20,321 bases of DNA from a virus. Under the pieces are notes generated by a model. The model was not told the DNA's origin and did no database searches. It worked only from the letters and a program-made list of their open reading frames with translations. The DNA lies in UHGV virus genome UHGV-0122335; one strand, written 5' to 3'. Made by a program: the position numbers and the translations under genes. Below are positions 2,696-18,010 of the stretch, piece by piece. Numbering within the stretch: the first letter of the stretch is position 1; each line of letters begins with the position of its first letter.

Positions 2696-3031
2696 TTACA
2701 CGCCCAGTTCTTTACGCTTATCTGCGATCTTCTCGCGGAGCGTTTCGGCTTTGGCGTTATGGTGTGGCTTCTCGTTAAAGAGCAATTCGTACTCTTCACG
2801 GAGCTTATCCAGTTCACCATCATCTGACACATCGTTGATGATTTTGGTGCTGGTTGCTGCCATTGACACCTTTCCTGCAACTTTTGCTTTTGCCTGTCTG
2901 GCTGCATCGTTAACAGGTTCCAGTGCGCTACCAGGCTCACCTTCGTATTCGATTTCTGCCCCCTCCGGCCACAGAGTGTTATGGATATGAGAGAGGCGCA
3001 GAACGCGGTATCTTGGTTTCTCACCTGACAT
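2696..3031 (-). CDS. Hypothetical virion-module protein (111 aa from ATG 3031; track gives a GTG start at 3040)
   Basis: ORF track 2696..3040; internal ATG at 3031 is preceded by AAGGTGA; lies between capsid-region genes. Confidence 0.5.
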   Translation of the reverse strand: MSGEKPRYRVLRLSHIHNTLWPEGAEIEYEGEPGSALEPVNDAARQAKAKVAGKVSMAATSTKIINDVSDDGELDKLREEYELLFNEKPHHNAKAETLREKIADKRKELGV

Positions 3032-3041
3032 CAATATCACC

Positions 3042-3479
3042 TTAACCAGTTACTTTTGAGCGGATCGGATACGGCGTATTGGCATCAACATCAAGATTGA
3101 TACCCGCAGTGAATTTGCCAGCCGTTAGTGGGCCAGTTGCGACGGAGTAGTTAACACGCAGATATCGCTGAACACCGGCAGGCACCTTTGCAGAAACAAC
3201 TCGCTTACCTGCTGTCAGGGGGGCCTTTGCCAGTGCGCCACTATCATAAATAGTGGACCATGAGCTGTTATTCTCACTCGTCTGCAACTGGATGTTTACA
3301 GTTGCCTCACCACTTGCCGTGGCGGCTTCGTTAACCAGCACCCAAAACTCAAGCGGGTAACCCACACCGATATCGCGACGGTTTCCGTCAATTGGACCGA
3401 GATCGATTACGTCAGTAGAAGCCGCGGTATCAGTTACCGCCTGTGCTTCGGAGAACATCAACAGTTTGTCGGTGATCAT
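3042..3479 (-). CDS. Hypothetical virion protein (145 aa), possible head decoration or accessory protein
   Basis: ORF track; ATG at 3479 with GGAGA upstream; immediately downstream of the major capsid gene. Product inferred from position. Confidence 0.55.
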   Translation of the reverse strand: MITDKLLMFSEAQAVTDTAASTDVIDLGPIDGNRRDIGVGYPLEFWVLVNEAATASGEATVNIQLQTSENNSSWSTIYDSGALAKAPLTAGKRVVSAKVPAGVQRYLRVNYSVATGPLTAGKFTAGINLDVDANTPYPIRSKVTG

Positions 3480-3530: not shown

Positions 3531-4517
3531 TTACACCACGCGGGCTTCTGTTTCCAGAAGTGCGTCAGTTTCACGAATCGGCACACCACGAAGTGCTGTC
3601 CACCATTCGCCTTCTGTCTCTTTCACGCTGATCGCCAGAGAACTCTTCTCCAGAGATTGCAGGTCAAGCACTTCGTTAATGGTTCTGTTCATGTAGAAAA
3701 CAGGACGTCCCATCCCACGATTTGGGATTCGATGAAGGGCACGAATCATCAGTTTTGCGATATTCGCGGCAGTAGAAGGAGCGTCAAGATTACTGACATC
3801 AATGTTTGCGATACGAACTACATAGCGCCAGTCACGTAATGTCAGCCCGTTGTCCCACTTATAATGGGTACGATAACCTTCGTACTTGCCGCCTTTAGCA
3901 TCTTCCAGTGTCACCTGGCCTTTATCTTCCATCTGAATGCCAGCCTTCTGTCCTTTCGGGAAGATGCCATGCACGGTGTTTTCGCCCCACACCACTAACC
4001 AGATTGAAGTGTTATCTGTACCCGTGCCACCAGCATCAATGATGTTCTGAGCATTACCCGCAGACAGGCTGGAATAGCGGGAGGACAGTCCCATAAACTG
4101 CTGAGGGTTAACGCTGGAATCACCGTAAAACAGTGTCTGCGCCATCGCCTGATTCATCGCTTCAATAAATGCTCGGTCTTCAGACAGACGGAATTCGGCA
4201 GTATTACCGTTCAGATCAGCCAGAGACTTATCGACTTCAGCATAGGTTTCCAGCATGCCAATGGAATCGGTGACCTGCACTGTGGTTGATTTGCTTGGCT
4301 GTACGCCATAGTTCAGCAAACGCCAGGTAGCAGAAGGTAAACCAGAACGAATGGTGGTTCGGTGTCCGGTAGGAAGGTTTCCTTCAACAAAAGGCATATC
4401 CTGAAGAATTGGGTTAGTTTGATTGAGAAGCTCGATAATCTTATCGACTTTCCCATTTGGATCGACGCGCTTACCCCAGTCAGCCAGCGTTAGCGCAGTT
4501 AAGCCTTTAACAGACAT
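3531..4517 (-). CDS. Major capsid protein (328 aa)
   Basis: ORF track; ATG at 4517 with strong GGAGGAGA-type RBS; size and position (after portal and an acidic scaffold-like protein) are typical of a major capsid protein. No sequence match was confirmed. Confidence 0.7.
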   Translation of the reverse strand: MSVKGLTALTLADWGKRVDPNGKVDKIIELLNQTNPILQDMPFVEGNLPTGHRTTIRSGLPSATWRLLNYGVQPSKSTTVQVTDSIGMLETYAEVDKSLADLNGNTAEFRLSEDRAFIEAMNQAMAQTLFYGDSSVNPQQFMGLSSRYSSLSAGNAQNIIDAGGTGTDNTSIWLVVWGENTVHGIFPKGQKAGIQMEDKGQVTLEDAKGGKYEGYRTHYKWDNGLTLRDWRYVVRIANIDVSNLDAPSTAANIAKLMIRALHRIPNRGMGRPVFYMNRTINEVLDLQSLEKSSLAISVKETEGEWWTALRGVPIRETDALLETEARVV

Positions 4518-4531
4518 TGTTATCTCCTCTC

Positions 4532-5227
4532 TTATTTGCCATAGAGCACTTCGGCCGCACTACGCTGGCCTTCATTACCACCGGTGACCATGCCATCTTC
4601 AGACATAGCCTTTCCGATTTTCACGAACGTTTTGACCAGATCAGGGTGATTACCCAGCCCGGTGGTGTTCAGATATTCTTTGAGTTCAGGTGTCCCGAAC
4701 TGGTCAAGCGCACGCTGTGCGGCGCTAAGGTTAGAAATCAACTTGTCGCCACCGATTTCTTTGTCAGCTTTTACATCCGCAGCCCACTGCTCGGTTGTTT
4801 TCTGCCAGGCTTCTGCCTGGCGCTGCTGAACACCTGCCAGAATTTTCGGATAAGCATCAACCAGCTTTTGCGCTTGCTCGTTGGTCAGGTTAAGTTCTCG
4901 CGCCACCGGCTCGAACTCCTTCAACGCTTCTGTATCCAGCTCTACGCCTTCGGCAGCCTGAAACTCGTACTTCTCAGGCGCACCCTCTGGTTTATCGCCG
5001 TCCTTTTTTTCATCCTGCTTATCGTTTTCAGGCTTTTTGTCATCAGCAGGTTTATCGCCATCAGCAACAGGTTGTGGCTTATCACCTTCCTGTTGTGATG
5101 GATCACCAACTGGAGCAGGGTTATCACCTGCAGGCGCTGACGGTTCTGACGCAGCCGGAGCTGCTCCACCATCGACTGGTTGCTCATTGCAAAGACGGCG
5201 ATACAGCAAACGCTCAAATAAATTCAT
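4532..5227 (-). CDS. Scaffolding (capsid assembly) protein, acidic and helical (about 231 aa)
   Basis: ORF track 4532..5233; ATG at 5227 with AGGAG 5 nt upstream; highly acidic D/E/K/P-rich N-terminal half; located between portal and capsid genes. Confidence 0.55.
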   Translation of the reverse strand: MNLFERLLYRRLCNEQPVDGGAAPAASEPSAPAGDNPAPVGDPSQQEGDKPQPVADGDKPADDKKPENDKQDEKKDGDKPEGAPEKYEFQAAEGVELDTEALKEFEPVARELNLTNEQAQKLVDAYPKILAGVQQRQAEAWQKTTEQWAADVKADKEIGGDKLISNLSAAQRALDQFGTPELKEYLNTTGLGNHPDLVKTFVKIGKAMSEDGMVTGGNEGQRSAAEVLYGK

Positions 5228-5229
5228 GA

Positions 5230-5526
5230 TCACTCCTGTTCACTGGCCTCTTTGGCCATCTTCAAATACTGTTCAGGGCAATGCGCCATAACGCGCTGAA
5301 ACAGTTCCAGCGCCAGATTGCGTTGCCCCTCATTAAATGCCATTGCCATAGCGTCCATCGGTGAGATAGCGGAAAACACCCGGCCTTTCTCCAGCACAGA
5401 CCAGACAACGCGACGCCCCTGTTCACTGCTCATGACAAAGCGAATGTCATCAATTTCACGCTGTGCCATGTCACGTTGCTTACGGGCGTTTTCTTCTTTC
5501 AGTTGATCGTCTTCGTAATCTGTCAT
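5230..5526 (-). CDS. Hypothetical protein (98 aa) between portal and scaffold
   Basis: ORF track; its ATG overlaps the portal stop (ATGA), suggesting translational coupling. Confidence 0.55.
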   Translation of the reverse strand: MTDYEDDQLKEENARKQRDMAQREIDDIRFVMSSEQGRRVVWSVLEKGRVFSAISPMDAMAMAFNEGQRNLALELFQRVMAHCPEQYLKMAKEASEQE

Positions 5527-7202
5527 TGTGATTGCCCACCCTGACCACTAACTGCATTCGCCATAGCTGACAAAACACTCGGATCCGAAGTTTTAGCTTC
5601 GCTTAGCGTCTTGGCACCCTGTGCCGCCGCCATCCCCATCGCCATCATTTGTTGCTGCTGTTGTTGCTGTGCCCGTTGCTGGCGAGCCTGCTCAACCTGT
5701 TCCTGCGGAACAATGACGGTTGGAGACACTCCGGACATATCAGCGAATGCATCGATCGCCTGATCAACGTTGAGTTTGTCGAAAGCTTCTGGTTTCGCTT
5801 GCGCAAGTTGACCAATGAAGTTAACCGTGGACGCCAGACTGGACAGGCCGATAGACTTCTGCGCCTGAGCCATGACAGAAATGTATTCGACCTTCAGGGG
5901 CATACCTTCCATCGCGTCAGGCGGTGGCGGCAGCATGTTTTTACGCACCATCATCGAGAAAGCGCGGTCAATGAGAGGATTAAGACATTCGTCGTTCAGA
6001 CGCTCCAGAACCGGCCCCAACATCAGAAGCTTTTCTTCTTTCATTTCGATCACCGCTTCAACAGGCATTGAGCGGGTATTGATGTTCTGCAACATCATGA
6101 ACAGATCGACGAAGTAGGCGCTGTTAATGATTTGACGAGTGTCCTGAATGTCTGCCACCAAATCTGCTGTACTGGGGTTAACCAGATAAGCAGGCCTGAA
6201 GCCATCCTGACCAGTAATCTGATCGATATACGTGATGTCGCCAGGAAGAAGGGAGGCGCGCTGATTCTTGAGGGAAGTCGGAGCAACCATCGGCGGATTG
6301 GTGGCTTTATCAATCAACTGCGACTTGCGCTTCTGGAGAAGCTGCAATGCCTTAACAGGTCCAAGCGCCAGCATACCCGGGCATGATGATCCATAAACAT
6401 CTTCGCCGTTAACTTCCCAGCGCGGAGCCATAATTGGAAACTCATCGAATCCGGACTCGCGCAACAACTTGTCGTTATCGCCACCAACCTCGTAATAAAC
6501 CGATTTGAATGGCTTGTTCTTGCTATCCAGCTTCGATGCATCGCGGTCAATGTTCGGGTAAACCGAATGCATCACTTCAATCCACTTCTCGTAGGTGCCG
6601 CTTTCCCACATGCTTTTTACGGATTCGCTGACGTTATTTAGCCCGAACTCCTGAACAAGCTGACGAACAGTCATAGAGAACTTGCGAAAACAGGTGTCCA
6701 CACTGCCACGAGGTGAGTTAGCCAGGTAGTAACTGCCTATCGGGAATGGCATTGTGCGAATGATGTCCTCGTCATCCTCCAGCACTGCCATTGCACCAGT
6801 GCTGTATGTGCCGAGGCTTCCGTATAACTGCGGCAGAGACTGATAGAGATTCGACTTATTGAACATATCGTTCATGCGGTTCTGCACCGCCTCAAGCCAC
6901 AACTTAACAGGGCCATAATCCATCATTTCAGGATCTGGCGTAGCCAGGCGAAACCACGGACGCGCGGGGCTTGTGATGCCTGACATCATGCCGCTGGCGA
7001 GAGTGCGCGCCGCCATAGTCCCGGTCGAATCAATAATACGTGTATTGCGTCGATCGTTACGGTTGACCTCAGAAGTCAGAAAGCGGGAACCACGCGGGTT
7101 GATGTAATCACTCAACTCGCGCCAGTGCGGCTCGAACGATTGACGCTCGCTTTCAAGTTGTGCGAACTGTTTGTTCAATCGCTCTTTAGTTGTTTCCGCC
7201 AT
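5523..7202 (-). CDS. Portal (head-tail connector) protein, 559 aa, with Q/A-rich C-terminal tail
   Basis: ORF track; ATG at 7202 with GGAG RBS; size and position after terL; C-terminal poly-Q/Ala-rich tail resembles T7-type head-tail connector proteins (recollection, not a search). Confidence 0.7.
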   Translation of the reverse strand: MAETTKERLNKQFAQLESERQSFEPHWRELSDYINPRGSRFLTSEVNRNDRRNTRIIDSTGTMAARTLASGMMSGITSPARPWFRLATPDPEMMDYGPVKLWLEAVQNRMNDMFNKSNLYQSLPQLYGSLGTYSTGAMAVLEDDEDIIRTMPFPIGSYYLANSPRGSVDTCFRKFSMTVRQLVQEFGLNNVSESVKSMWESGTYEKWIEVMHSVYPNIDRDASKLDSKNKPFKSVYYEVGGDNDKLLRESGFDEFPIMAPRWEVNGEDVYGSSCPGMLALGPVKALQLLQKRKSQLIDKATNPPMVAPTSLKNQRASLLPGDITYIDQITGQDGFRPAYLVNPSTADLVADIQDTRQIINSAYFVDLFMMLQNINTRSMPVEAVIEMKEEKLLMLGPVLERLNDECLNPLIDRAFSMMVRKNMLPPPPDAMEGMPLKVEYISVMAQAQKSIGLSSLASTVNFIGQLAQAKPEAFDKLNVDQAIDAFADMSGVSPTVIVPQEQVEQARQQRAQQQQQQQMMAMGMAAAQGAKTLSEAKTSDPSVLSAMANAVSGQGGQSQ

Positions 7203-7216
7203 TTCAATGACTCCGG

Positions 7217-7423
7217 TTACTGACCAAGCAGCGTTTTACCGCTGGTATTAGCGGTTGATGTGTCGCCCTGAGAACCGGTAAGCAGCGTAGAACTACGACC
7301 AGCAGCAGCGCGACGGCGACGAGTTTCTTCGTCGCGGGCATCAACAACGGCGGCATCCTGCTCCTGTGGTGCTGCCTGAACTTCTGGTGTTGCAGGCACT
7401 GATGGTGAGCTACCCATGCACAT
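7217..7423 (-). CDS. Small acidic S/T/A-rich hypothetical protein (68 aa) upstream of portal
   Basis: ORF track; ATG at 7423 preceded by GGAGTCATTGAT; stop lies 15 nt before the portal ATG. Confidence 0.45.
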   Translation of the reverse strand: MCMGSSPSVPATPEVQAAPQEQDAAVVDARDEETRRRRAAAGRSSTLLTGSQGDTSTANTSGKTLLGQ

Positions 7424-7491
7424 ATCAATGACTCCGTACGCAATTAAATTATTACCAATTTAACCACATATGATTTATTTATCGTAGACAG

Positions 7492-7520
7492 TTGACATTT
7501 AATGCACGAATTATTACCTT
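7492..7520 (+). promoter_or_regulatory. Candidate sigma70 promoter (TTGACA at 7492-7497 with a weak -10) upstream of the tRNA island
   Basis: Consensus -35 hexamer TTGACA; the downstream -10 is poor (TATTAC/TACCTT region); overlaps the palindrome at 7514..7528. Confidence 0.3.
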
Positions 7521-7528
7521 TAAGGTAA
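7514..7528. repeat. 15-bp near-palindrome TTACCTTTAAGGTAA (copy 1 of 2)
   Basis: Seen directly; a second copy TTACCTTGAAGGTAA lies at 8138..8152; a further palindrome GGTTACTAACC lies at 7545..7555. Confidence 0.5.
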
Positions 7529-7857
7529 CCAAAGAGTTCATTCCGGTTACTAACCTGACTGGCTTGTCGTTAAATTGAACAGGTGGAGTGAGCTTTTATT
7601 TTGAGCAGTACGGCGTATGGCACATGCGACGATAGCGGTCTGGATACGTTTAAGGGGCACCCTCCCTTGCTCGGGCAAACGAACCAGGTAGCCGGAATGT
7701 GCAAGTCGAGCGGTTTTATTCCGCGCACGGGGATTCACCATCCCGGCGATTCGGTGTGACGCCTCGGAAGAGACGAGGGTACAACGATGAGAGCATTGGA
7801 TATTAGCGGGCTGTTCCACCCTACCTGATATCGAGCCAAACCAGTGCTCTCAGCGTT

Positions 7858-7934
7858 GTGGCATTAGCTCAGTTGGACAGAGCAACCGCCTTCTAAGCGG
7901 TTGGTCGCAGGTTCGAATCCTGCATGCCACGCCA
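7858..7934 (+). tRNA. tRNA-Arg (anticodon UCU, reads AGA), CCA encoded
   Basis: Hand-folded cloverleaf: acceptor GTGGCAT/ATGCCAC, D-stem GCTC/GAGC, anticodon stem ACCGC/GCGGT with loop CTTCTAA, T-arm GCAGG-TTCGAAT-CCTGC, discriminator G plus CCA. Phage-borne tRNA-Arg(UCU) is common in lambdoid and Stx-type phages. Confidence 0.9.
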
Positions 7935-7977
7935 GAATCACGCCTAAGGACCGTGATGCCAGAAGTTCCAGGGGATT

Positions 7978-8019
7978 GGCGGTGACTGTTTCCCTTGAAG
8001 GACTATCACCGCCCTTTTT
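7978..8019 (+). terminator. Putative intrinsic terminator downstream of the tRNA
   Basis: GGCGGTGA...TCACCGCC 8-bp stem (long structured loop) followed by CTTTTTTA. Confidence 0.45.
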
Positions 8020-8097
8020 ACAGCAGGACGCCATTGCGATGACTTCATGCTGTAAACCAGTACAGCCACGGAAGGCATAACTCATTGCTTCCAGTTC

Positions 8098-8121
8098 GCC
8101 CGGTTCGCCGGGCATTTTTTT
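8098..8121 (+). terminator. Intrinsic (rho-independent) terminator
   Basis: GCCCGG-ttcg-CCGGGC hairpin followed by ATTTTTTT. Confidence 0.65.
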
Positions 8122-8137
8122 GCCTGGTGACTGAACG

Positions 8138-8152
8138 TTACCTTGAAGGTAA
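8138..8152. repeat. 15-bp near-palindrome TTACCTTGAAGGTAA (copy 2), 33 nt upstream of the moron ATG
   Basis: Seen directly; overlaps a candidate promoter (GTGACT -35 at about 8127, TAAGAT -10 at 8150-8155). Confidence 0.5.
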
Positions 8153-8184
8153 GATAACAAAAACATTTAACATCTGGTTTAGAC

Positions 8185-8790
8185 ATGTTCGAGCAATTTA
8201 AAGAGATCGCATCATCGGCTATTAGCACAGCGTCAGAGAGAGTCCGCAACCCAGCACTTGGGGCATTTGTGTTTTCGTGGTGTTCTTTTAACTGGAATCC
8301 ACTATTATTTTTATTCTTCAGTAAGTCAGGAATTGAAGAAAAAATAAATTATATATCTTCCCATAGTGATGCGTACCACTCACTCTTATATCCAGCTTTA
8401 TGTGCATTCGCGCTGTGTGTAATAGTTCCATGGTTTAACAATATAGTGGTGATGTTTCAAAAAATTCCACTACAGAACATCGATAACTTCAAACACAACA
8501 AAAGCCTCAGGGATGTTAAAAACGCCATAGAATTGCGTAAGCTTGAGGCACAAAGGGACATTACATACGACAGAGTTAAGGTTGAGTTTGAGTCTGAGAT
8601 TCAATTCTATAAAAATGATTTAATCAAGCACCAAGAGTCTTTGAATTCTTTTTTGCAGGAAAGAGATTCCCTTATTGAAAAAATAATGGCGCTTGAAAAA
8701 GAACTTGCAGAAGAAAAAATAAAATCCAATACCAGAATTGCAAATAAGTTTAACTCAAGGAACAATCGCAACACAGACAATGCTGCTTAA
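8185..8790 (+). CDS. AT-rich moron: predicted membrane protein with two hydrophobic segments and a C-terminal coiled-coil (201 aa); function unknown
   Basis: ORF track; strongly AT-rich relative to flanks; opposite strand to the structural operon; hydrophobic stretches LGAFVFSWCSFNWNPLLFLFF and LLYPALCAFALCVIVPWFNNIVVMF followed by a K/E-rich heptad-like region; no obvious SD sequence. Confidence 0.6.
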   Translation: MFEQFKEIASSAISTASERVRNPALGAFVFSWCSFNWNPLLFLFFSKSGIEEKINYISSHSDAYHSLLYPALCAFALCVIVPWFNNIVVMFQKIPLQNIDNFKHNKSLRDVKNAIELRKLEAQRDITYDRVKVEFESEIQFYKNDLIKHQESLNSFLQERDSLIEKIMALEKELAEEKIKSNTRIANKFNSRNNRNTDNAA

Positions 8791-8794
8791 AACT

Positions 8795-10264
8795 TTATGA
8801 AAACGGATCGTACTCAGTAATAGCTTTCCCCTGCTGCTGCCGTGGGTCATTAGTTTTCTTGGCTACCGGGAAGGCGAACGTTAGCAGCAGCGCATCACCT
8901 TTACCCGGCGAACGCCCAAGTCGCTCTTTGATATCTTCCTTCGGTTCGATAACGATTTTACCGTCCACGCGAACTTTGTACTCTGCCGTCGACAGGTCGT
9001 CTGCTGTTTCCTGGTCATCCAGCATCCCGCCCAGCCTCAGCCATGTCTTGCATGAGTTGAACATCTCCCCACGCTTGTTGAGCATCTGCGGGTCAGTAGA
9101 CGCGCCACCGAACGGAACAAGTTGCCATGTACGACCCCAGCCGTCACCGATTGACTTCAGACCAGTTCCGTAACCGAAGTCGATGAACACTGCGTCAGCC
9201 TGGTACTGGTCTTCAAAGTCAGCGATACGCTTCGCCATTATCAGATCGTCAGTGGTCTTGTTGCCAGTCCACAGCACCTTACTGTGCAGCCCCTGCCGCA
9301 GGTATATCACAGCGTCATCAACTCCGGAGTATGCCGGGTCAACGCCGATTATCACCGGAGCATGTGCAACCTGCGCAGCGGTTACCACCCGTTTCATTGC
9401 CTCATCAGTAAGACCGGTAGGGATAAACTGCAATTCAGATGCATCAGGGAATATGCCGCGCACACGGATTTTAACGAAGTCGCTGTCTTCCCCGTAGTCA
9501 TCAACCCATTTCTGCAACTGCTGTTTGTTAGTACCTTCCACCGTCCGGCTGTCAATCTGCGCAGTTTTCCAGCGGTGTTTGTATTTGCGGAAACATTCGC
9601 GAAAACGCCCGGTATTACGTGTAGGGTTTCCGAACGCCACCCAGATAATCTCAGTGTCTTCGTCCGTAAGCGCACCCTCAGCAACTTCCCACACCAGATC
9701 CGCAATGTTCGACGCTTCATCGAATACCACGATGATGCGTTTGCGCTCGTTGTGTAGTCCGGCGAATGCCTCAGTGTTGTGCTCAGACCAGGGGATTGCG
9801 TCAGCTCGCCACCGCTTGTCGTGCCCAGGATCATTGCTGTACATCGCAGTAGCGGTACAGGTAAACCAGTCTTTCGTGATAGCAAGGTTCGACCACTTGA
9901 TAATTTCCGGCCAGGTCTTCGTTCGTAGCTGGTTGTCGGTGTTGGCGGTCACCACGACCTTACAATCCTCGCAAGTGGACATGCCCCAGTTGATCAGCAT
10001 TGAGATGAATGCGGATTTACCAATACCGTGACCAGAAGCGCGTGCCAGCATAAGCGGCTGATAGCGCGTCTCTGGATTCTGCAGGTGATCACGTATCTCT
10101 CGGAACGCATCAGCCTGCCACTGACGTGGGCCGGTAGCATGTGCCAGTTCAGTCCCCTCTTCCCCCCACGGGAACGCATAGAGGGCATAGCCAAGCGGAT
10201 CGTGAGTGAACCCTGCAATATCCTCGATCAACTGCTCTTCAGGAGATAACGCTGTATCTGTCAC
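8795..10264 (-). CDS. Terminase large subunit (489 aa)
   Basis: ORF track; GTG start at 10264 overlapping the terS stop (GTGA) with AGGATGG upstream; size and position immediately downstream of the small subunit and upstream of portal. Confidence 0.8.
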   Translation of the reverse strand: MTDTALSPEEQLIEDIAGFTHDPLGYALYAFPWGEEGTELAHATGPRQWQADAFREIRDHLQNPETRYQPLMLARASGHGIGKSAFISMLINWGMSTCEDCKVVVTANTDNQLRTKTWPEIIKWSNLAITKDWFTCTATAMYSNDPGHDKRWRADAIPWSEHNTEAFAGLHNERKRIIVVFDEASNIADLVWEVAEGALTDEDTEIIWVAFGNPTRNTGRFRECFRKYKHRWKTAQIDSRTVEGTNKQQLQKWVDDYGEDSDFVKIRVRGIFPDASELQFIPTGLTDEAMKRVVTAAQVAHAPVIIGVDPAYSGVDDAVIYLRQGLHSKVLWTGNKTTDDLIMAKRIADFEDQYQADAVFIDFGYGTGLKSIGDGWGRTWQLVPFGGASTDPQMLNKRGEMFNSCKTWLRLGGMLDDQETADDLSTAEYKVRVDGKIVIEPKEDIKERLGRSPGKGDALLLTFAFPVAKKTNDPRQQQGKAITEYDPFS

Positions 10265-10857: not shown

Positions 10858-10900
10858 AACCACCATGGTAATTGTTACCGTTGTGGTAATAGTACCATGC

Positions 10901-11428: not shown

Positions 11429-12195
11429 CACTTCACCTCCTGCGGCGGTTCTGGTAGCGGCATCCAGTGGGTTACTTTCGATGCCGGTTCTTCCCCATCG
11501 TCAGTAACTGCCCACCATTTGTTTCTCGACCAATCGTAATACCCTTCGAAGGTATCGCACTCAGTCCAGCCGTAAGACTTACCCCAACACCAAACATACT
11601 GTTTATCGTTCGGCATTCGCTCACTACAGCTTATCCAACCATCCGGAGTTGCCGGAGTTGGTCCATCGAATTCGGGCATGTCAGGACCTTTTCTGATAGC
11701 TTTAGCCAGCTCCAGCGGGTCATCGTAAAGCCAGTCGCCAGTTTGTGGGTGATTTGCTTCTGCAAGCTGCGCAGCCCATTCAAGACCATCTTTTTGACCT
11801 TGGAGATAATCAAGCGGCAACTCTTCATGATTACTTGCAGGTTCGGCACTATGAAGCATGGCAGCGCGGCAGGCGTTCCAGCCTCTTACCCCTGCAATAG
11901 CGGCAACCGCATCAACCGCGTACATGCTAAGAGGATTAGGAATTGGTTTTTCTTCCGGTACTACTGGCGCTGGAGGGGTGGCGTAGAGTGGAACTCCTCC
12001 CCCTCCACCAGAAAATTCATTGCGAGCGTTATACTCACGACCATCTGCGTCATCACGCATCCACGCCACCGGCTCTGCTTCCAGCGATGCCAGAGCAATT
12101 TCATAAGCACGGCGCTCAATATTGTCTCGCACGTCCAGGCTGCCGATTCGCTCTTTGATTTCTTTAATCAGTTCTTTGTCGGTAAAAGTGGTCAT
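11428..12195 (-). CDS. DUF551-like prophage protein (255 aa; Trp-rich C-terminal domain)
   Basis: ORF track; ATG at 12195 with AAGGAGAG RBS; C-terminal W-rich region (GWISCSERMPNDKQYVWCWGKSYGW...THWMPLPEPP) resembles the DUF551 domain common in lambdoid prophages (recollection). Confidence 0.6.
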   Translation of the reverse strand: MTTFTDKELIKEIKERIGSLDVRDNIERRAYEIALASLEAEPVAWMRDDADGREYNARNEFSGGGGGVPLYATPPAPVVPEEKPIPNPLSMYAVDAVAAIAGVRGWNACRAAMLHSAEPASNHEELPLDYLQGQKDGLEWAAQLAEANHPQTGDWLYDDPLELAKAIRKGPDMPEFDGPTPATPDGWISCSERMPNDKQYVWCWGKSYGWTECDTFEGYYDWSRNKWWAVTDDGEEPASKVTHWMPLPEPPQEVK

Positions 12196-12196
12196 G

Positions 12197-13015
12197 TCAC
12201 TCTCCTTTGATGCGAATGCCAGCGTCAGACATCATATGCAGATACTCAACTGCATCCTGAACCCATTGACCGCCAATCCCGTAATAGCGATGCGTAATGA
12301 TGTCGATAGTTACTAACGGGTCTTGTTCGATTAACTTCCGCAGAAACTCTTCCAGGTCACCAGTGCAGTGCTTGATGACAGGAGTTTTCCCAGGATGGCG
12401 AACAACAAGAAACTGATTTCCGACTTCACGGACTTCGTTGCTTTTCAGTTCTGCAATGCGCTTCTCTGAGGCTTCCAGCTTCTCTCGCATATCGTCAACG
12501 TACTCGACCAGAGAACCGCCAGCAGGAATTTCGCACTCCTCGACCAGTTGGAAGTAGATATCAGCTGCGGCCCGTGTGTTGCTATGCCTAGCGTCGCCCA
12601 TCTCACCTTCACGAAGAGCATCGCGTTCGGCGGTAAGATTGGCTATTTTGCTGTCTTTGCCTTCCAGCTCAACGCGCAGCTTCCCTACCGTTAGCGCAAT
12701 ATCCTCGTTCTCCTGGTCGCGGCGTTTGATGTATTGCTGGTTTCTTTCCCGTTCATCCAGTAATGCCAAGACGGTAGCCGGATTAGCTGCGGCGATGAAT
12801 TCAGCATTGGCCTGCTGTTCCATTTGGAAATCTTCATCGAAACCGCTTTCTGGATGCGCTCCTTCAATTCTGCAAATAGGAATATATCCAGCAACTTCAC
12901 GATGAATTAGCGCATCATCACCATCAAATCGGCTCTCTCCATATTCGAGCGACCATACACCACACGTTGCTTTTTCTGCCTTGGCACGCAGTGCCTGATA
13001 GTCAATCTTGCTCAC
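12197..13015 (-). CDS. Ead/Ea22-like protein (272 aa)
   Basis: ORF track; GTG start at 13015 with AGGAGG 6 nt upstream; central coiled-coil; typical early-left accessory protein of lambdoid phages (family assignment from recollection). Confidence 0.55.
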   Translation of the reverse strand: MSKIDYQALRAKAEKATCGVWSLEYGESRFDGDDALIHREVAGYIPICRIEGAHPESGFDEDFQMEQQANAEFIAAANPATVLALLDERERNQQYIKRRDQENEDIALTVGKLRVELEGKDSKIANLTAERDALREGEMGDARHSNTRAAADIYFQLVEECEIPAGGSLVEYVDDMREKLEASEKRIAELKSNEVREVGNQFLVVRHPGKTPVIKHCTGDLEEFLRKLIEQDPLVTIDIITHRYYGIGGQWVQDAVEYLHMMSDAGIRIKGE

Positions 13016-13089
13016 TGGTTGCCTCCTGCTTTTCTGCCTTCAACACCATGCGAGAACCATCATCCAGCTCCCACGCGATCTCACCACCT

Positions 13090-13239
13090 TCAGCCATGAC
13101 CAGTCGCCTCATTGGTAACATCACGACCTGGATCATTGCCAACGCGCATACGTCCACCTTCAACATCGCGCATTTTTGCCAGCATGATAGTTTTTGATAG
13201 CGGTGAAAAACCAAGCTGTAGTCGTGCTGAATTACTCAC
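13090..13239 (-). CDS. Small hypothetical protein (49 aa, GTG start)
   Basis: Hand-translated; same start context as Ea22 (17-nt repeat CTCACTGGTTGCCTCCT giving AGGAGG, a GTG start and an overlapping upstream TGA). Overlaps the track ORF 13002..13214 in another frame, so only one of the two may be real. Confidence 0.3.
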
Positions 13240-13403
13240 TGGTTGCCTCCTTTGCGCCACGTCGCATTCAGATATCTGTTGTCGTTAACAGAACCGAAAC
13301 TCTTTCTCTTAAGCAATTCCTCTCTCGATGGCATTGGCTTTACGCGTTGGCGAATAATCATTTCTGCCGGAAGAATGCCGGGATTGTATGCAAGTCCTCT
13401 CAT
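13236..13403 (-). CDS. Small hypothetical protein (55 aa)
   Basis: C-terminal part of track ORF 13236..13556; ATG at 13403 preceded by GAGGAA; the longer track version would overlap the upstream 98-aa gene by 143 nt. Confidence 0.45.
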
Positions 13404-13413
13404 GGTAAATTCC

Positions 13414-13710
13414 TCAGTCATTACTGATAGCGCCATAGCGTGAGCGGTAATTACGCAGGCGCGGGTCGATATATTCAGGGAAGTTGGTATATGTGGCTTT
13501 GCGGAATGGTCGGATTGATGTCTGGTAAATTCGCTCGCGTTCTTCTTTCTCTGCAAGCCATATACAATGGCGAAATTCCTTTTCCTCTTTCGTTTCCTGC
13601 GGTAGCGACATTATCCGGTCGTAGTTTTTCCTGAATTTATCCAGCACCTCCGATACGGAATTGCCGGAACAGCGGCGCGGGTCATCCGCACCATACTGAG
13701 GCGCTGGCAT
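13414..13710 (-). CDS. Hypothetical protein (98 aa)
   Basis: ORF track; ATG at 13710 with AGGAG RBS; directly downstream of ssb. Confidence 0.6.
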
Positions 13711-13723
13711 GATTTTCTCCTGA

Positions 13724-14230
13724 TTAAATTGCGTGAATAGCGTGACGAGGGAAGGGGAGAGTTACTGGTGCAAAGGGTATATCGTCGTCAAAATCCATCG
13801 GAGGTTCGTTGTGTTGTGCTGGTGATGATTGCTGCTGTGGCTTCTGTGATTGCCTGCTGGCTGCTTGTTGTTTGCTGTCGCCAATGCTGCCAAGCATTTG
13901 CATCACGCCATTAATTCCGACATGAACCTCGGTTGTGTAACGGTCTTGCCCTGACTGGTCTTTCCACTTTCTGGTTCTCAGCATTCCCTCGAAATAAATC
14001 TGATCACCTTTTTTCACATACTGCCCCACGACCTCAGCCAGTTTCCCGGATACAGCAACACGATGCCATTCAGTCAATTCCTTTTGCTCGCCAGTATTTT
14101 TATCTCGCCATTGTTCTGACGTGGCTATTGTCAGGTTAGCGAACGCTGTTCCTGATGGTGAGTATCGAACTTCCGGGTCTTGTCCTACCCGACCAAGGAT
14201 AATCACCTTATTTACGCCTCTGCTTGCCAT
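13724..14230 (-). CDS. ssb: Single-stranded DNA-binding protein (168 aa)
   Basis: ORF track; N-terminal OB-fold motifs typical of SSB ([16 protein letters not shown]...WHRV) and acidic C-terminal tail ending DDDIPF; ATG immediately follows the recombinase stop codon. Confidence 0.85.
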
Positions 14231-14938
14231 CTATGCCGCCTGTTTTAGTTCGTTAACTCTGATGTTCATTACCTGAACGCATTTAGCCTGCGCCTCCTCG
14301 TTGCCAGCCATTAATTGCCAGTCACGCTGATAACGCTCGATGAGTTTTTTCTTGTCAGTTTCTGTTGACGCATAATCGCTGAAGTCTTTCAGGATTTGTT
14401 CGCAGTCAACCGATGGAGATTTCTGGTTGGTATTTTCTGGTGATGGTTTGTTATCTGATGCTGGGATTGCCCATCCCGGCAGCGATGGAGGGGACCAGTA
14501 AAATCCTGTTCCATCCTTCAGTTTTGCCCTGTGCCACCCCTGCTTTTTATCGAGAGATGTTTGTGCGAAACCTTCCTCAAGGTTATACAGATACCGACCG
14601 ATTCCCCACTGAACGGCAGCACGCTTCATTGCACCGGAACGACCACCTTTGACGGCTTCTACCTGCGTGTTTTCAGCAGCATCCCATTTGGTTACCCATT
14701 CGGAATCAATCTTGATTGATATGCCGCATTCAACTCCGCCGTTGTTGGGAATATCGCGGTATTCATTGCGCCATCCTGCTTTGCCGCAAACATCGTCCAG
14801 GCGTTTCATGATTGCCCGGTTCGTGACATAAGCCAGCACCATAGCCCACACCTTGCCATCGCGTGTTTTACCGCTTTGCTGTATTCGCCATTCGATATCT
14901 TCAGGGCTGAATGGCTCATCGAATTTGTTCAAATCCAT
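14231..14938 (-). CDS. Phage single-strand annealing recombinase (ERF/Rad52-like; exact family not resolved)
   Basis: ORF track 235 aa; ATG at 14938 with GAGGTGA RBS; directly coupled to ssb; central KRAAVQWGIGRYLY-type motif; sits where lambda carries bet/exo. Confidence 0.65.
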   Translation of the reverse strand: MDLNKFDEPFSPEDIEWRIQQSGKTRDGKVWAMVLAYVTNRAIMKRLDDVCGKAGWRNEYRDIPNNGGVECGISIKIDSEWVTKWDAAENTQVEAVKGGRSGAMKRAAVQWGIGRYLYNLEEGFAQTSLDKKQGWHRAKLKDGTGFYWSPPSLPGWAIPASDNKPSPENTNQKSPSVDCEQILKDFSDYASTETDKKKLIERYQRDWQLMAGNEEAQAKCVQVMNIRVNELKQAA

Positions 14939-14946
14939 AATTCACC

Positions 14947-15118
14947 TCAGAATGGACACGGCCCAAGGAAATAACGCTGATTTAATACTTCGACTCGGGA
15001 CAAATTAAGGCATACCCGCATTCCTTCGCGGTCACCATTATGGCGATACCAGAGAGCTTTCTGCGTGTACATGCGTCTCTGTAACTTGCTCTCCTTCACT
15101 GTGGTTGCAAGTGACATG
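14947..15118 (-). CDS. Small hypothetical protein (56 aa)
   Basis: Hand-translated; GGAG RBS 6 nt upstream of the ATG; overlaps the next small ORF by 80 nt in another frame, so uncertain. Confidence 0.3.
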
Positions 15119-15196
15119 AATATCTCCTTCGTTACCGATTAATTCTTTCATCTGACGAATGAATTCTTCGTCTGACCAGTTATCTGTAAAACTCAT
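15039..15196 (-). CDS. Small acidic hypothetical protein (52 aa)
   Basis: Hand-translated; AGGAA RBS; its ATG overlaps the stop of the kil-like ORF (ATGA). Confidence 0.4.
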
Positions 15197-15345
15197 TTCC
15201 TGCGATACCACGGAAGGTTGATAGCTGATTTCATCGCTTTATTTGCTTCAAGCCACATTTTTGAATCACCAATAAATCTGGCTATTACTGCTTTGTTCTG
15301 TGCAGCACGAAGCATCTGGTGATTGATGGCTATTTCATTGCGCAT
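15193..15345 (-). CDS. kil: Kil-like small protein (50 aa)
   Basis: Hand-translated (MRNEIAINHQMLRAAQNKAVIARFIGDSKMWLEANKAMKSAINLPWYRRK); GAGGT RBS; lies immediately after cIII as in lambda. Similarity to lambda Kil is from memory and unverified. Confidence 0.45.
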   Translation of the reverse strand: MRNEIAINHQMLRAAQNKAVIARFIGDSKMWLEANKAMKSAINLPWYRRK

Positions 15346-15461
15346 AATAAGACCTCAACTCTTTTCCATCCGTCACGTAATTTACGGGTGATTCGTTCAA
15401 GTAAAGATTCATTTAGTTGGAAGGCACCCATGCGAGCGCCTCCCGCGATTGCGTAAATCAT
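15330..15461 (-). CDS. cIII: cIII (inhibitor of FtsH/HflB), 43 aa
   Basis: Hand-translated (MIYAIAGGARMGAFQLNESLLERITRKLRDGWKRVEVLLCAMK); contains the conserved lambda cIII core ESLLERITRKLRDGWKR; AAGGAA RBS. Confidence 0.7.
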   Translation of the reverse strand: MIYAIAGGARMGAFQLNESLLERITRKLRDGWKRVEVLLCAMK

Positions 15462-15485
15462 GGGTGGTTCCTTATGTTGGTTTTA

Positions 15486-16454
15486 TTAGTAGGTTATTTT
15501 TGTTGCGAATACTTCGCCTTTTACGATGGCTGTTATGATATTTTTAGCAACATCTTCTGATGCGCCAACCTTGATAAGGTCAGCAAGTATTTTGTTATTT
15601 ACTTCTTTCCGGTGATCTTTATCCTTTGCTCTACGCTCTTCTTCGTCCTTGATTCTTTTTTCTTCTGCTATTCTGGCTTGCTCTTTTGCTTCAGCATCGC
15701 GACGGATTTGTTCAGCCTCCTCCTGTGCTTTTCTGCGTTCTGCTTCAATTGCTGCCTGCTTTTCTCTTTCAGCTCGTTCTGCTGCCTCTTTTGCTTCGCG
15801 CTGTGCTCGTTGCTCGGCTTCAATGCGTTCACGCTCTGCACGTTCTGCTGCGGCCTTAGCTTCTGCTTCTCGCCTTGCTGCTGCTTCAATTTCGGCTTTT
15901 GCCTTTGCTTCGGCTTCTGCTCTGGCTTTCTCTTCAGCTTCTCTTTTTAATCGTTCTTCATGCTCTCGCTTTTCCTGCTCCGCTTTGAGTCTTGCCTCTT
16001 CTCTTTGGCGGTCAAATTCGCGATCCATCAAAATCGCTATTTCATGGTCAGACTCAATTTGCTTTGCGAGAGCTTCAGCTGCTGCCTTAGCTTCTTCTTC
16101 GGCTTTAATCCGTGCCTGTTCCTCCTCATAATCAGTAAGAGGCTGGCGTGCCTTGGCTTTCAGCTCATCAAGTCGATCACGCACTGTCTTGCGGTTGGCA
16201 TCAATTAGCTTTGGAATTCCCTTCAGTTCAGCAACAAGGTCTTTGCCAAGACCATCGAGATATGTTTTCGTCTGCGCAACTTTATACGCCAGAGAAGCGA
16301 TCTCCTTTCTGCCCTTTGCCGTTGTGATATCAGGCACAAAGGACATAACTTCACGTTCAACCTTTTGGAGAATTTCTTCAATCTGGTCGGCAGACTGAAA
16401 TACAGTCATTGCATTTGCTTTTTCAATAACAACTAAATCTGTTACTTCACTCAT
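15486..16454 (-). CDS. Highly charged coiled-coil protein with E/A/K/R-rich repeats (322 aa from ATG 16454)
   Basis: ORF track 15486..16550; the in-frame ATG at 16454 carries a strong GGAGGATAT RBS; a roughly 120-residue central stretch of EAxAKA/ERxxRE-type repeats (low-complexity DNA); N- and C-terminal regions appear globular. Confidence 0.65.
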   Translation of the reverse strand: MSEVTDLVVIEKANAMTVFQSADQIEEILQKVEREVMSFVPDITTAKGRKEIASLAYKVAQTKTYLDGLGKDLVAELKGIPKLIDANRKTVRDRLDELKAKARQPLTDYEEEQARIKAEEEAKAAAEALAKQIESDHEIAILMDREFDRQREEARLKAEQEKREHEERLKREAEEKARAEAEAKAKAEIEAAARREAEAKAAAERAERERIEAEQRAQREAKEAAERAEREKQAAIEAERRKAQEEAEQIRRDAEAKEQARIAEEKRIKDEEERRAKDKDHRKEVNNKILADLIKVGASEDVAKNIITAIVKGEVFATKITY

Positions 16455-16466
16455 ATATCCTCCATC

Positions 16467-16496
16467 AAAAAAAATTGCCCTCACACTGGAGGGCAA
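16467..16496 (-). terminator. Intrinsic terminator on the minus strand upstream of the coiled-coil gene
   Basis: TTGCCCTC-cagtgt-GAGGGCAA hairpin followed by U8 in the minus-strand transcript. Confidence 0.6.
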
Positions 16497-16588
16497 AGAA
16501 GATTTCCAATAATCAGAACAAGTCGGCTCCTGTTTAGTTACGAGCGACATTGCTCACATAGCAGACTCGTAAATCTGCTATAGGCGCT

Positions 16589-16746
16589 TATTCGCATCGC
16601 ATGACAACATCAAATTTTTCGAGATTACTTTGTCGCAACAATCCTTCTTCTACTCGGTCAGCTTTTCTATAATTATCAAATTCGAAATGTTTAATTACTT
16701 CTTTCGTTTCTCGCTCTATAACTTCAACGATGTATTTCTTATTCAT
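16589..16746 (-). CDS. Small AT-rich hypothetical protein (51 aa)
   Basis: Hand-translated (MNKKYIVEVIERETKEV...); its ATG overlaps the stop of the upstream gene (TAATG). Confidence 0.4.
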
Positions 16747-17015
16747 TACTCATCACCTATGGCTTTTTTGATAGCTTCGCGAGCCTTATTAACAGCTCCA
16801 TACCATTCTGGATATGTTGTCGTTGTTCTATTTTCGGCTTGCTTAAGTAATAGCTGAAGTGCTTCAAGTAAATCCGGTGCAGCCATAGCTAATCTTCCAT
16901 TTGCTACGGCCTCTTCTGTTTCTTTACCGGATAGGGCCATTCCCGGGTGTGAAAATAAAATTAAGCCTGCAAAATTGGCTTCTCGCCAATTTTTCCTAGT
17001 ACCTTTAAATTCCAT
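16746..17015 (-). CDS. Hypothetical protein (89 aa)
   Basis: ORF track; ATG at 17015 with AGAGG RBS. Confidence 0.55.
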   Translation of the reverse strand: MEFKGTRKNWREANFAGLILFSHPGMALSGKETEEAVANGRLAMAAPDLLEALQLLLKQAENRTTTTYPEWYGAVNKAREAIKKAIGDE

Positions 17016-17054
17016 GTTAGCCTCTGTTGTTTATGCCAAAAATAAAGGCCACCA

Positions 17055-17306
17055 TCAGGCAGCCTTTTTGTAAATGTTGCAGGTATCAAGTAAGTAATTA
17101 GATGGAGCGCCATAAATTATGAATTCATCGTTTGTCGGGTCCATCTCCATCTCTTGGCCTATTGCCATTCTTGCGTCAGTGTCATCAGAGGCGAAGCATA
17201 AAACAGCCCACGCACCCATTGTTTTAAAAAGAACTGCAATTGGCTGTGGTTTTACTGAATTTGCGTTAGTGCGAAAATCATAAATCGCACTTTCATGAAA
17301 TTCCAT
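17055..17306 (-). CDS. Hypothetical protein (83 aa)
   Basis: ORF track; ATG at 17306 with GAGGTGAG RBS; first gene after N. Confidence 0.55.
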   Translation of the reverse strand: MEFHESAIYDFRTNANSVKPQPIAVLFKTMGAWAVLCFASDDTDARMAIGQEMEMDPTNDEFIIYGAPSNYLLDTCNIYKKAA

Positions 17307-17314
17307 ATCTCACC

Positions 17315-17647
17315 TCAATCGTAATAAGCTGGAATTGATTTTCCGCGTTGCTTCTGGCGGCCTGAGCAGGTCAAACCCATTTCACTACGTGGCTTGCTGT
17401 ACCATGTGCGCTGATTCTTGCGCTCAATACGTTGCAGGTTGCTTTCAATCTGTTCGTGGTATTCAGCCAGCACTGTAAGGTCTATCGGATTCAGTGCGCT
17501 TTCTACTCGTGATTTCGGTTTGCGATTCAGCGAGAGAATAGGGCGGTTAACTGGTTTTGCGCTTACCCCAACCAACAGGGGATTTGCTGCTTTCCATTGA
17601 GCCTGTTTCTCTGCGCGACGTTCGCGGCGGCGTGTTTGTGCATCCAT
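17315..17647 (-). CDS. N: Antitermination protein N (lambda-type)
   Basis: N-terminus MDAQTRRRERRAEKQAQWKAANPLLVGVS is the lambda N arginine-rich boxB-binding motif and the protein is near-identical to lambda N over most of its length; AGGAG RBS. Confidence 0.9.
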   Translation of the reverse strand: MDAQTRRRERRAEKQAQWKAANPLLVGVSAKPVNRPILSLNRKPKSRVESALNPIDLTVLAEYHEQIESNLQRIERKNQRTWYSKPRSEMGLTCSGRQKQRGKSIPAYYD

Positions 17648-17845
17648 CTGGATTCTCCTGTCAGTTAGCTTTGGTGATTGGATGGCCGGCGCTGAACCCC
17701 GGCTTACTGGTTAGAGCGCCCGCACTACCAGTGACGCTGTCTTGAGGCGCAGATTGGTTACTGCTTGCCATGAGCGCTGTTTATACATTGGTCGAGCATC
17801 AGCCTGCTCATTCATCCAATCCCAAAGCCTTCTGCTTTGAATGCT

Positions 17846-17875
17846 GCCCTTCTTCAGGGCTTAATTTTTAAGAGC
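17846..17875 (-). promoter_or_regulatory. nutL (boxA plus boxB)
   Basis: The minus strand reads GCTCTTAAAAATTAAGCCCTGAAGAAGGGC, one base different from lambda nutL boxA-boxB as recalled; about 200 nt upstream of N. Confidence 0.8.
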
Positions 17876-17915
17876 ATCACCTTCATGGTGGTTAGTACGT
17901 CCTGCTGATGGCTAA

Positions 17916-17944
17916 ATAGTACGATTTGTACTTTATCGAGTCAA
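17916..17944 (-). promoter_or_regulatory. pL promoter (TTGACT, 17-nt spacer, TACTAT) with overlapping operator
   Basis: Minus-strand -35 at 17944..17939 and -10 at 17921..17916 with 17-nt spacing; correct position upstream of nutL and N. Confidence 0.5.
17918..17932. promoter_or_regulatory. Candidate oL operator: palindrome AGTAC-N5-GTACT
   Basis: Perfect 5+5 inverted repeat overlapping the pL -10 and spacer; related sites occur in the oR region. Confidence 0.4.
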
Positions 17945-18010
17945 TACAAAATGTTCTAAATATAATTAGTTTTTTATAACGCTTTGTATTTAATGGGTTT
18001 ATATTTTTGA

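Follow-up and report, generated by a model that had tools for sequence, protein, structure and literature searches.

A predicted operator-coupled accessory slot with a covarying RNA and exchangeable cargo between the terL and portal genes of a Uetakevirus-type phage module

The gap between the terminase large subunit gene (terL) and the portal gene in the virus genome UHGV-0122335, of which the whole stretch of 20,321 nucleotides (nt) analysed here is called the window, is an accessory-gene slot, and the open reading frame (ORF) of 201 amino acids (aa) that it carries, ORF201, is one of several alternative cargo genes. The slot is read on the strand opposite to the head and packaging genes and consists of a conserved unit, in which a promoter-like site precedes an unannotated structured RNA and a tRNA-Arg(UCU), followed by a variable unit that here contains ORF201. 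Slots for exchangeable genes are an already known kind of thing; the operator-coupled design of the cassette and the widespread covarying RNA go beyond the ordinary. As an overall picture we favor, at a probability that we would place somewhat below even, an operator-controlled slot of two units in which ORF201 would act as an exclusion or abortive-infection factor during lytic growth and the RNA would be a stable, stand-alone molecule.

Exchangeable cargo in a lineage-wide slot

The structural part of the window is the morphogenesis module of an epsilon15/phiV10-like podovirus of the genus Uetakevirus. Positions 7204-8800 are 100% identical to Escherichia phage EC.W1-9 (PP445227). The first part of this region (7204-8121) is approximately 95% identical to phiV10, the O157 typing phages 9 and 10, TL-2011b, ZX5 and others, with divergence setting in after position 8121, and it is approximately 82% identical to Salmonella phages of the SPN1S type. 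A plus-strand unit between a gene for a 68-aa protein and terL is found lineage-wide in Uetakevirus-type phages of E. coli, Salmonella, Klebsiella and Enterobacter, and the gap begins with the same conserved sequence across the related phages examined. An earlier interpretation made from the letters of the window (the sequence-only reading) had considered the location of such genes within the head-assembly operon to be atypical and had proposed asking whether terL and portal are normally adjacent. In all of the epsilon15/phiV10-like phages examined a plus-strand unit occupies the same position, and the location is the usual one for this lineage.

While the beginning of the slot is conserved, its cargo turns over. 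A census of 21 loci revealed at least seven unrelated cargo families, among them an unrelated 123-aa protein (PHROG 322) in phages of the phiV10 type, a 168-aa protein in SPN9TCW, a DUF2829 protein in Klebsiella ST512phi13.3 and three small ORFs in Tyrion. Relatives of ORF201, referred to here as family X, occupy the slot in Klebsiella phage BUCT711, where the protein has 263 aa and 42% identity, and in numerous E. coli prophages, where it has 246 aa and 43% identity; even a phage with a copy of no more than 25% identity has it in this position. Among close relatives, ORF201 itself was found only in genomes of the EC.W1-9 type and is absent from phages of the phiV10 type. The proposal that ORF201 is accessory cargo was therefore well founded, as the gene is AT-rich, counter-oriented and variable between phages that are otherwise about 95% identical. 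The place of exchangeable genes is thereby defined for the epsilon15/phiV10-type phages, a group that has the O157 typing phages and numerous prophages of Klebsiella and Salmonella among its members.

The slot resembles morons and accessory hotspots, in the sense of Juhala and Hendrix, in being an extra transcription unit between conserved genes that has a deviant base composition and upstream terminators and is present or replaced among close relatives. ORF201 itself shows such presence and absence, and its G+C content is 36% compared with 52-54% for terL and portal. A promoter-like GTGACT-17-TAAGAT sequence before the gene is kept in three cassettes but escaped a consensus scanner, and the 3′ side offers only a weak terminator-like site of five pairs (8830-8846), which lies within terL. 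The slot is unlike a moron in three respects: its promoter does not appear to be autonomous but bears the dispersed putative operator of the phage, it includes a conserved RNA-tRNA unit, and ORF201 lacks a convincing downstream terminator and converges on terL.

Anatomy of the two units

The conserved unit follows an AT-rich block, TTAAATTATTACCAATTTAACCACATATGATTTATTT (7445-7481, plus strand), which in a six-genome alignment is invariant in E. coli, Salmonella and Klebsiella phages save for one base in one sequence. The predicted promoter/operator of the RNA and tRNA (7492-7528, plus strand) is composed of a −35 sequence, TTGACA (7492-7497), a 17-nt spacer and a −10-like sequence, TACCTT (7515-7520), which forms the left arm of a perfect palindrome, TTACCTTTAAGGTAA (7514-7528). 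TTGAC(A/C)-17-TACCTT and the palindrome are kept in six genomes of E. coli, Salmonella and Klebsiella phages, and the letters of the spacer vary; a promoter scanner offered TAGACA-18-AATTAT as an alternative. From a promoter with its −10 inside TTACC-N5-GGTAA, a single transcript would carry the structured RNA (7608-7860, plus strand) fused to the 5′ side of the tRNA-Arg (7858-7934, plus strand), which was identified by ARAGORN and scores 73.3 bits with the Rfam tRNA model against a gathering score of 29. Its anticodon, UCU, decodes AGA and, by wobble, AGG, and ARAGORN found the tRNA in five of six related phages. A hairpin in the 3′ trailer of the tRNA, AUCACGCCUAAGGACCGUGAU (7937-7957, plus strand), recognized by folding and near-invariant in the six genomes, may serve as a processing signal.

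The transcript of the conserved unit would end at two terminators or attenuators. The first, T1 (7978-8019, plus strand), folds as GGCGGUGA...UCACCGCC with an 8-bp G+C stem (7978-8013) followed by CUUUUU. It was overlooked by a simple scanner because of its long loop, and its stem letters change with retention of pairing in Salmonella and Klebsiella phages (GGCGGTGG...CCACCG). The second, T2 (8098-8121, plus strand), was found both by the scanner and by folding, as GCCCGGUUCGCCGGGC followed by AU7 (hairpin GCCCGGTTCGCCGGGC plus T7). The family-X cassette has its left edge at T2, as judged from the copy in Klebsiella michiganensis, with which homology begins at approximately 8083.

In the variable unit, T2 is followed by a second predicted promoter/operator (8127-8155, plus strand) with GTGACT at −35 (8127-8132), a 17-nt spacer and TAAGAT at −10 (8150-8155). 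The palindrome TACCTTGAAGGTA (8139-8151) sits in this spacer and overlaps the −10 sequence; a consensus scanner did not call this promoter. ORF201 extends from 8185 to 8790 on the plus strand, and its stop codon (TAA, 8788-8790) is separated by 4 bp from that of terL (8795-8797, minus strand), so that the two genes converge as previously described. The tRNA, the two terminators and the AT-rich ORF likewise lay where the sequence-only reading had placed them on the strand opposite to terL and portal, as judged by ARAGORN, Rfam, folding and translation. Every item that it listed is present, and it had missed the palindromes at 7515-7527 and 8139-8151. A coding sequence annotated in PP445227 (9143-9394) antisense to the tRNA-Arg and terminator region (window 7864-8115/8166, minus strand) had no family match and was treated as spurious because it overlaps the tRNA.

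A dispersed palindrome that probably couples the slot to phage regulation

The palindrome TACC-N5-GGTA is perfect at three places in the window, the two promoters of the slot and a site just upstream of terS (10876-10888), where 0.08 copies are expected, and all three lie in the epsilon15-like part. The complete genome of EC.W1-9 contains 15 copies compared with 0.21 expected, nearly all at intergenic promoters. Four of these surround the genes for the repressor and the cro-like protein, and the replication region has two. Single copies precede terS and the tailspike and integrase genes, and several lie in the antirepressor region. An AACCA(C/T)AT motif, which resembles the AT-rich block at 7445-7481, recurs upstream of many of these operator-bearing promoters. 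In addition, three family-X cassettes whose proteins are only about 43% identical retain (N)TGAC(N)-17-TA..AT around the palindrome at 42-46 nt before the ATG. The palindrome is perfect and in register with the −35 and −10 sequences in every Uetakevirus-type copy of family X; it is decayed in the copies of lambdoid prophages.

The simplest reading of this distribution is that TACC-N5-GGTA is a repressor operator scattered over the genome, as are the operators of the P1 C1 repressor. Both systems place one repressor site at many promoters of the genome, and P7 even has the structured RNA of the slot beside a tRNA within its C1-controlled ban operon, although the operator sequence and the repressor family differ from those of the Uetakevirus-type phages. 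We infer that TACC-N5-GGTA serves as the operator for an immunity repressor of the phiV10 type. A literature search, which did not cover the epsilon15 genome paper, found no published operator for epsilon15 or phiV10. Because both plus-strand promoters of the slot carry the palindrome that is also found around the repressor gene of the sister phage, the cargo is probably wired into the repression circuit of the phage instead of being constitutive in lysogens. An operator overlapping the ORF201 promoter predicts repression in a cognate lysogen and expression upon infection or induction. If cargo is plugged into a genome-wide operator network and is not free-running, the condition under which its phenotype should be sought shifts from the lysogen to lytic growth.

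The sequence-only reading had instead pictured ORF201 as a moron with a promoter of its own that is active in the lysogen. In its classical form, this view has ORF201 acting there by superinfection exclusion, abortive infection or a change of the cell surface, and it draws support from the features of the gene described above, its AT-rich and counter-oriented nature, insulation by upstream terminators and variability between close relatives. Furthermore, copies of family X in lambdoid nin regions have kept their ORF intact though the palindrome has decayed, and the lambda-like immunity region of the window has no TACC-N5-GGTA site, so that the operator of ORF201 may be unoccupied here. The idea is nevertheless weakened by the finding that the promoter is overlapped by a palindrome marking nearly all promoters of the sister phage, including those of the immunity region and of the late, integrase and tailspike genes, and by the perfect, in-register conservation of this site in the Uetakevirus-type copies. 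Neither did ORF201 show homology to SieA/SieB, Imm, Rex or the PADLOC families. We regard expression in the lysogen as an unlikely explanation, though one deserving of attention.

A covarying structured RNA

The sequence-only reading had regarded the island with ORF201 as the best candidate in the window for an uncharacterized accessory or defense function. The most unusual element is one that it had missed, the structured RNA of approximately 250 nt between the first promoter and the tRNA. This RNA comprises helices H1, H2, H5 and H6, a pseudoknot in which UCACC in the loop of H5 pairs with a downstream GGUGU, and a long covarying closing helix, H7 (CAACGAUGAGAGCA...UGCUCUCAGCGUUG), whose terminal GUUGUGG extends into the 5′ end of the tRNA. 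Along this region, variable hairpins are interspersed with conserved blocks. Two ORFs within 7550-7819, of 89 aa on the minus strand and 52 aa on the plus strand, were considered and rejected as coding sequences; they gave no family matches, and the length differences among relatives are not multiples of three.

The fold was established with an alignment of 51 sequences in which H1, H2, H5, H6 and the pseudoknot were placed manually, with conserved anchors as guides; the raw MAFFT alignment misaligns the variable hairpins and gave a poor structure with RNAalifold. In the 29 pairs so defined, 97% of cells are paired, compared with 28-44% when the partners were slid, and double changes occur in 13 pairs (110 cells), compared with 1-7 pairs after sliding. 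For four of five measures, none of 500 shuffles reached the observed value. Compensatory changes are found in H1 (CGGCG/CGCCG versus CGGCA/UGCCG), in H6 (CCUCG/CGAGG versus CCUGG/CCAGG) and in the pseudoknot (UCACC:GGUGU versus UAACC:GGUUU). The frequent U-G pairs, such as 9-19 (49 of 51 sequences), identify the plus strand as the strand that folds, and many nucleotides of the RNA are both invariant and unpaired.

A covariance model built for the RNA, R1, scores 142.8 bits at window positions 7608-7788 and 129-143 bits on the copies of Uetakevirus, P7 and Stx/cdtI phages. A search of Rfam 15 returned nothing overlapping 7608-7857, even at E≤10. The RNA is thus strongly covarying, folded and without a match to any Rfam family, although it may bear a name outside Rfam and the searchable literature. 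The prophage small RNAs Pas, AgvB and AsxR were set aside as products of different loci in the late region, and the Nus-dependent mEpimmI phages as unrelated siphoviruses. The closest likeness in kind is to GOLLD and ROOL, as the RNA is structured, covarying and phage-borne, has no known function and is adjacent to a tRNA in two of three contexts; it is unlike them in being much smaller and enterobacterial, and it matches neither family in Rfam 15.

Spread of the RNA and its possible roles

An invariant 19-mer of the RNA, GGTAGCCGGAATGTGCAAG, is present in at least 120 IMG/VR contigs representing approximately 70 different sequence contexts. Because the tRNA follows it in only three of 69 contexts, the RNA is an element independent of the tRNA. 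Searches by blastn located the RNA in 84 phage records, and 1840 of 5426 complete E. coli genomes carry it, at 2474 places of which 554 are on plasmids. None of the E. coli genome records listed (PGAP) annotates it, and an element found in one third of these genomes has thus gone unmarked by any annotation pipeline. Near-identical copies, 79% identical to that of the window, occur in 12 records of Stx2c phages.

Three contexts were read closely. The RNA is present in P1 and P7, and the P7 copy lies between the tRNA-Ile and ban, 2.4 kb downstream of the promoter of the ban operon. In phages Stx2a_WGPS2 and cdtI, it is found just downstream of cI and on the cI strand. At the cdtI locus (2894-3420) a near-consensus pL (TTGACA-16-CATAAT) lies directly behind the cI terminator, and its start precedes the RNA by approximately 45 nt; the RNA would thus be the first element transcribed from this predicted promoter, and the gene order is the same in Stx2a_WGPS2. 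In cdtI the RNA is followed, at 3369-3412, by a hairpin resembling T1 of the window, in which an 8-bp stem closes a loop of about 20 nt ahead of a T-run. In all three contexts, including the slot, the RNA is placed in, or appears to belong to, repressor-controlled early transcription.

We consider it most likely that the RNA functions as a stable stand-alone molecule, which in the slot would be freed from the tRNA by RNase P. A different role is suggested by its position in the lambdoid phages, where it stands as lambda nutL and HK022 putL do, as the first element transcribed from pL and ahead of terminator-like hairpins. The RNA might accordingly be a cis-acting processive antiterminator, put-like in function and structurally unrelated, which acts on RNA polymerase and in the slot permits read-through of T1 and T2 into the cargo. 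No N-like protein was recognized among the first pL genes of the cdtI-type locus, which belong to PHROG 204 and 210 (both of unknown function), and the many invariant unpaired nucleotides suggest a specific macromolecular partner. Moreover, the cargo genes of the phiV10 and Klebsiella ST512 types begin 15-20 nt past the T-run of T2, which leaves no room for a promoter, so that transcripts of the conserved unit must read through the terminators at least there.

The likeness to put is nonetheless one of position only. The RNA is approximately 250 nt in length with a pseudoknot, compared with about 70 nt and two stem-loops for put, it lacks conserved single-stranded boxA and boxB sequences, and HK022 has no copy, R1 having found no match in its whole genome at E≤1. 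A boxA-like sequence in the 3′ strand of H7 (UGCUCUUU-like) was rejected as a signal, since it is one variant of a helix that covaries to GAGCGC/GCGCUC, GAUGGC/GUCAUC and others. The distance of the P7 copy from its promoter also argues against cis antitermination, as does a crude census of 94 RNA loci, in which the next ORF of at least 70 aa was on the same strand in only 33 and a terminator-like site lay within 600 nt in about half; this census, with its noisy ORF calls, is too noisy to distinguish action in cis from action in trans. Overall, we think that an antitermination role in the slot is improbable but worth pursuing. We hold to be similarly doubtful the broader suggestion that the RNA represents a class of phage RNAs not yet described, which modifies RNA polymerase without the help of a protein, has a new architecture and drives the pL operon in lambdoid phages lacking N. 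If the RNA were a new antitermination or host-takeover element, it would bear on early gene control in P1 and in the Stx phages that carry it.

ORF201 and the unnamed family X

ORF201 is a real protein-coding gene under purifying selection, with dN/dS values of 0.20-0.38 against close relatives; at 73% amino-acid identity dS is saturated. It matches PHROG 4780, of unknown function, with an E value of 6.5e-52 (residues 1-197 on profile positions 1-199 of 275) and is a short-tailed member that leaves the last 75 profile positions uncovered; three further PHROGs of unknown function are also matched. A profile of the N-terminal 143 residues retrieved 140 homologue clusters from Escherichia, Klebsiella, Citrobacter, Salmonella, Cronobacter and Enterobacter, and an exhaustive phmmer search gave 171 representatives at E≤1e-10 (50%-identity clusters), with all matches starting at or near the N terminus of the query. 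The members are approximately 200-500 aa in length, and none of those checked bears a name. Conservation is concentrated in the N-terminal 95 residues or so, with invariant P23, G26, N36-W37, P70, P82 and N85-N86, while the coiled coil varies in length and sequence.

The protein can be divided into an amphipathic helix (2-19), a first hydrophobic segment (23-45), a loop helix (50-60), a second hydrophobic segment (66-91) and a basic tail rich in Asn, Arg and Lys. Of the two transmembrane segments previously predicted, that at 66-91 is strongly hydrophobic (19-residue Kyte-Doolittle mean up to 2.1), whereas that at 24-46 is marginal (maximum 1.3) and kinked in the structural model. The coiled-coil tail was upheld by AlphaFold2, which, with a 46-sequence alignment, predicts an all-helical protein (mean pLDDT of 76) with one unbroken helix from 63 to 200, and by the matches of family members, which are solely of the generic coiled-coil type. 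Because a basic stretch follows the second segment and the loop between the segments is slightly acidic, we infer that ORF201 is an inner-membrane protein with cytoplasmic N and C termini.

A defense or exclusion function for ORF201 is a reasonable guess, reached by analogy. Like SieA and SieB of P22 and Imm and Sp of T4, it is a small accessory phage protein with a predicted location in the inner membrane, and the two T4 proteins are likewise produced in lytic growth. It shares no detectable sequence or fold similarity with these proteins, and to our knowledge a long cytoplasmic coiled coil is not a feature of them. Searches of Pfam, including SieB (PF14163), and of NCBIfam yielded no family above cut-off for ORF201 or 15 relatives, and only coiled-coil noise. 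PADLOC-DB 2.0 gave one spurious coiled-coil match (E 0.0014, 15.8 bits), and Foldseek of the model against PDB and BFVD found no match at E≤0.001. The same family and structure searches (Pfam, PHROG, PDB, BFVD) disclosed no homologue with a structural role in virions, a role that had been named as grounds for abandoning the accessory view.

ORF201 might alternatively serve the lytic cycle of its own phage at the membrane, in lysis timing, as a spanin-like protein, as an anchor for replication or packaging, or in neutralizing a host defense bound to the membrane. The operator predicts its co-expression with lytic genes, it adjoins the packaging genes, and its membrane anchor, coiled coil and basic tail would resemble organizers of the type that we take p16.7 to represent; p16.7 of phi29 anchors replication or packaging complexes to the membrane. 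Yet ORF201 is dispensable, being replaced by at least six unrelated genes in sister phages, and it lies far from the lysis cassette, the holin, endolysin and endopeptidase genes of EC.W1-9 being located elsewhere. An i-spanin (Rz/LysB) is further disfavored by the E value of only 3.7 for the LysB model and by the basic residues after the second segment, which favor a cytoplasmic coiled coil, unlike the periplasmic one of i-spanins. A function in its own lytic cycle therefore appears rather improbable to us, and somewhat more so than the exclusion of other phages by a lysogen.

The arginine codons of ORF201 accord with its neighborhood. Seven of its ten are AGA or AGG, and AGA is used 19.9 times per 1000 codons, compared with 0 in terL, terS and portal; these two codons are almost unused in the structural genes. 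Other genes rich in AGA are cI, ssb and an early gene of 354 aa. The demand of this AT-rich gene for AGA and AGG matches the adjacent tRNA-Arg(UCU).

Family X is also found outside the slot, again counter-oriented, in the nin regions of lambdoid prophages (KO-TP1 and Citrobacter) and in a Vibrio inovirus. The KO-TP1 copy (3840-4795) and the Citrobacter copy (4840-5984) retain traces of the Uetakevirus sequence between the terminators together with a decayed palindrome whose distance from the ATG is unchanged, which suggests that whole cassettes, with their flanks, left an epsilon15-like slot and were captured in the nin regions. In K. michiganensis, a copy of ORF201 of 89% identity adjoins, with the same convergent spacing of 4 bp, a 191-aa gene (locus 5617-6192) whose 3′ end is homologous to that of terL. 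This gene, which lies near KilA-N/ANT, AlpA and Rap1a genes, appears to be what is left of terL in an element that has decayed or recombined. In the inovirus vB_VipaK (4001-4771), a filamentous phage of Vibrio parahaemolyticus, a protein distantly related to the N-terminal domain, with 33% identity over 78 aa, is encoded beside a homologue of f237 ORF9, and its position may correspond to that of f237 ORF8, which we take to be the marker of the pandemic clone of V. parahaemolyticus. No conserved partner gene was found beside family X in any context examined. Family X is thus a large, wholly unnamed family of membrane/coiled-coil proteins that recurs in counter-oriented accessory positions of podo-, sipho- and inoviruses.

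A proposed regulatory strategy for the slot

We propose that both units of the slot would be silent in a cognate lysogen and would be switched on with the other early promoters of the phage upon infection or induction. The tRNA-Arg(UCU) would then help to translate the AGA/AGG-rich message of ORF201, and the long coiled coil of the protein might oligomerize at the inner membrane and interfere with membrane-linked steps of competing phage infections. Our best guess, which again rests on analogy, is that ORF201 would be an exclusion or abortive-infection factor made in lytic growth, as are Imm and Sp of T4.

Several considerations weigh against this proposal. The promoters, the terminators and the pairing of operator with repressor are deduced from sequence. 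The lambda-like early region of the window has no TACC-N5-GGTA site, so this phage may lack the matching repressor and could express both units constitutively. With no terminator behind ORF201, transcription would continue antisense into terL, which the proposal leaves unexplained. The read-through demanded by cargo directly behind T2 in phages of the phiV10 and ST512 types fits the antitermination idea. ORF201 bears no likeness that we could find to a known exclusion, abortive-infection or defense protein, and, given its marginal first segment, a single-pass protein with a periplasmic coiled coil is conceivable.

Flanking genes and the mosaic window

The slot is bounded by minus-strand genes: terL (8795-10264), which is named terminase large subunit in PP445227 and has no Pfam match, the 68-aa gene (7217-7423), located between portal and the terL-side gap, and portal (5523-7202; Pfam Head-tail_con, E 7.5e-187). 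The terS gene, also on the minus strand, encodes a Terminase_2 domain. The window as a whole is a mosaic in which the epsilon15-like structural module is followed from approximately 11.6 kb by a lambda-like early region (11600-20321); neither this junction nor the whole window was found among the complete E. coli genomes of the collection. The early region encodes a cro-like helix-turn-helix protein, an S24-type cI (18070-18804, minus strand), cII (19116-19469, plus strand), an HNH endonuclease (19480-19908, plus strand) and N (17315-17647, minus strand). It also contains a nutL site (approximately 17840-17880, minus strand), the boxB of which we take to match that of lambda.

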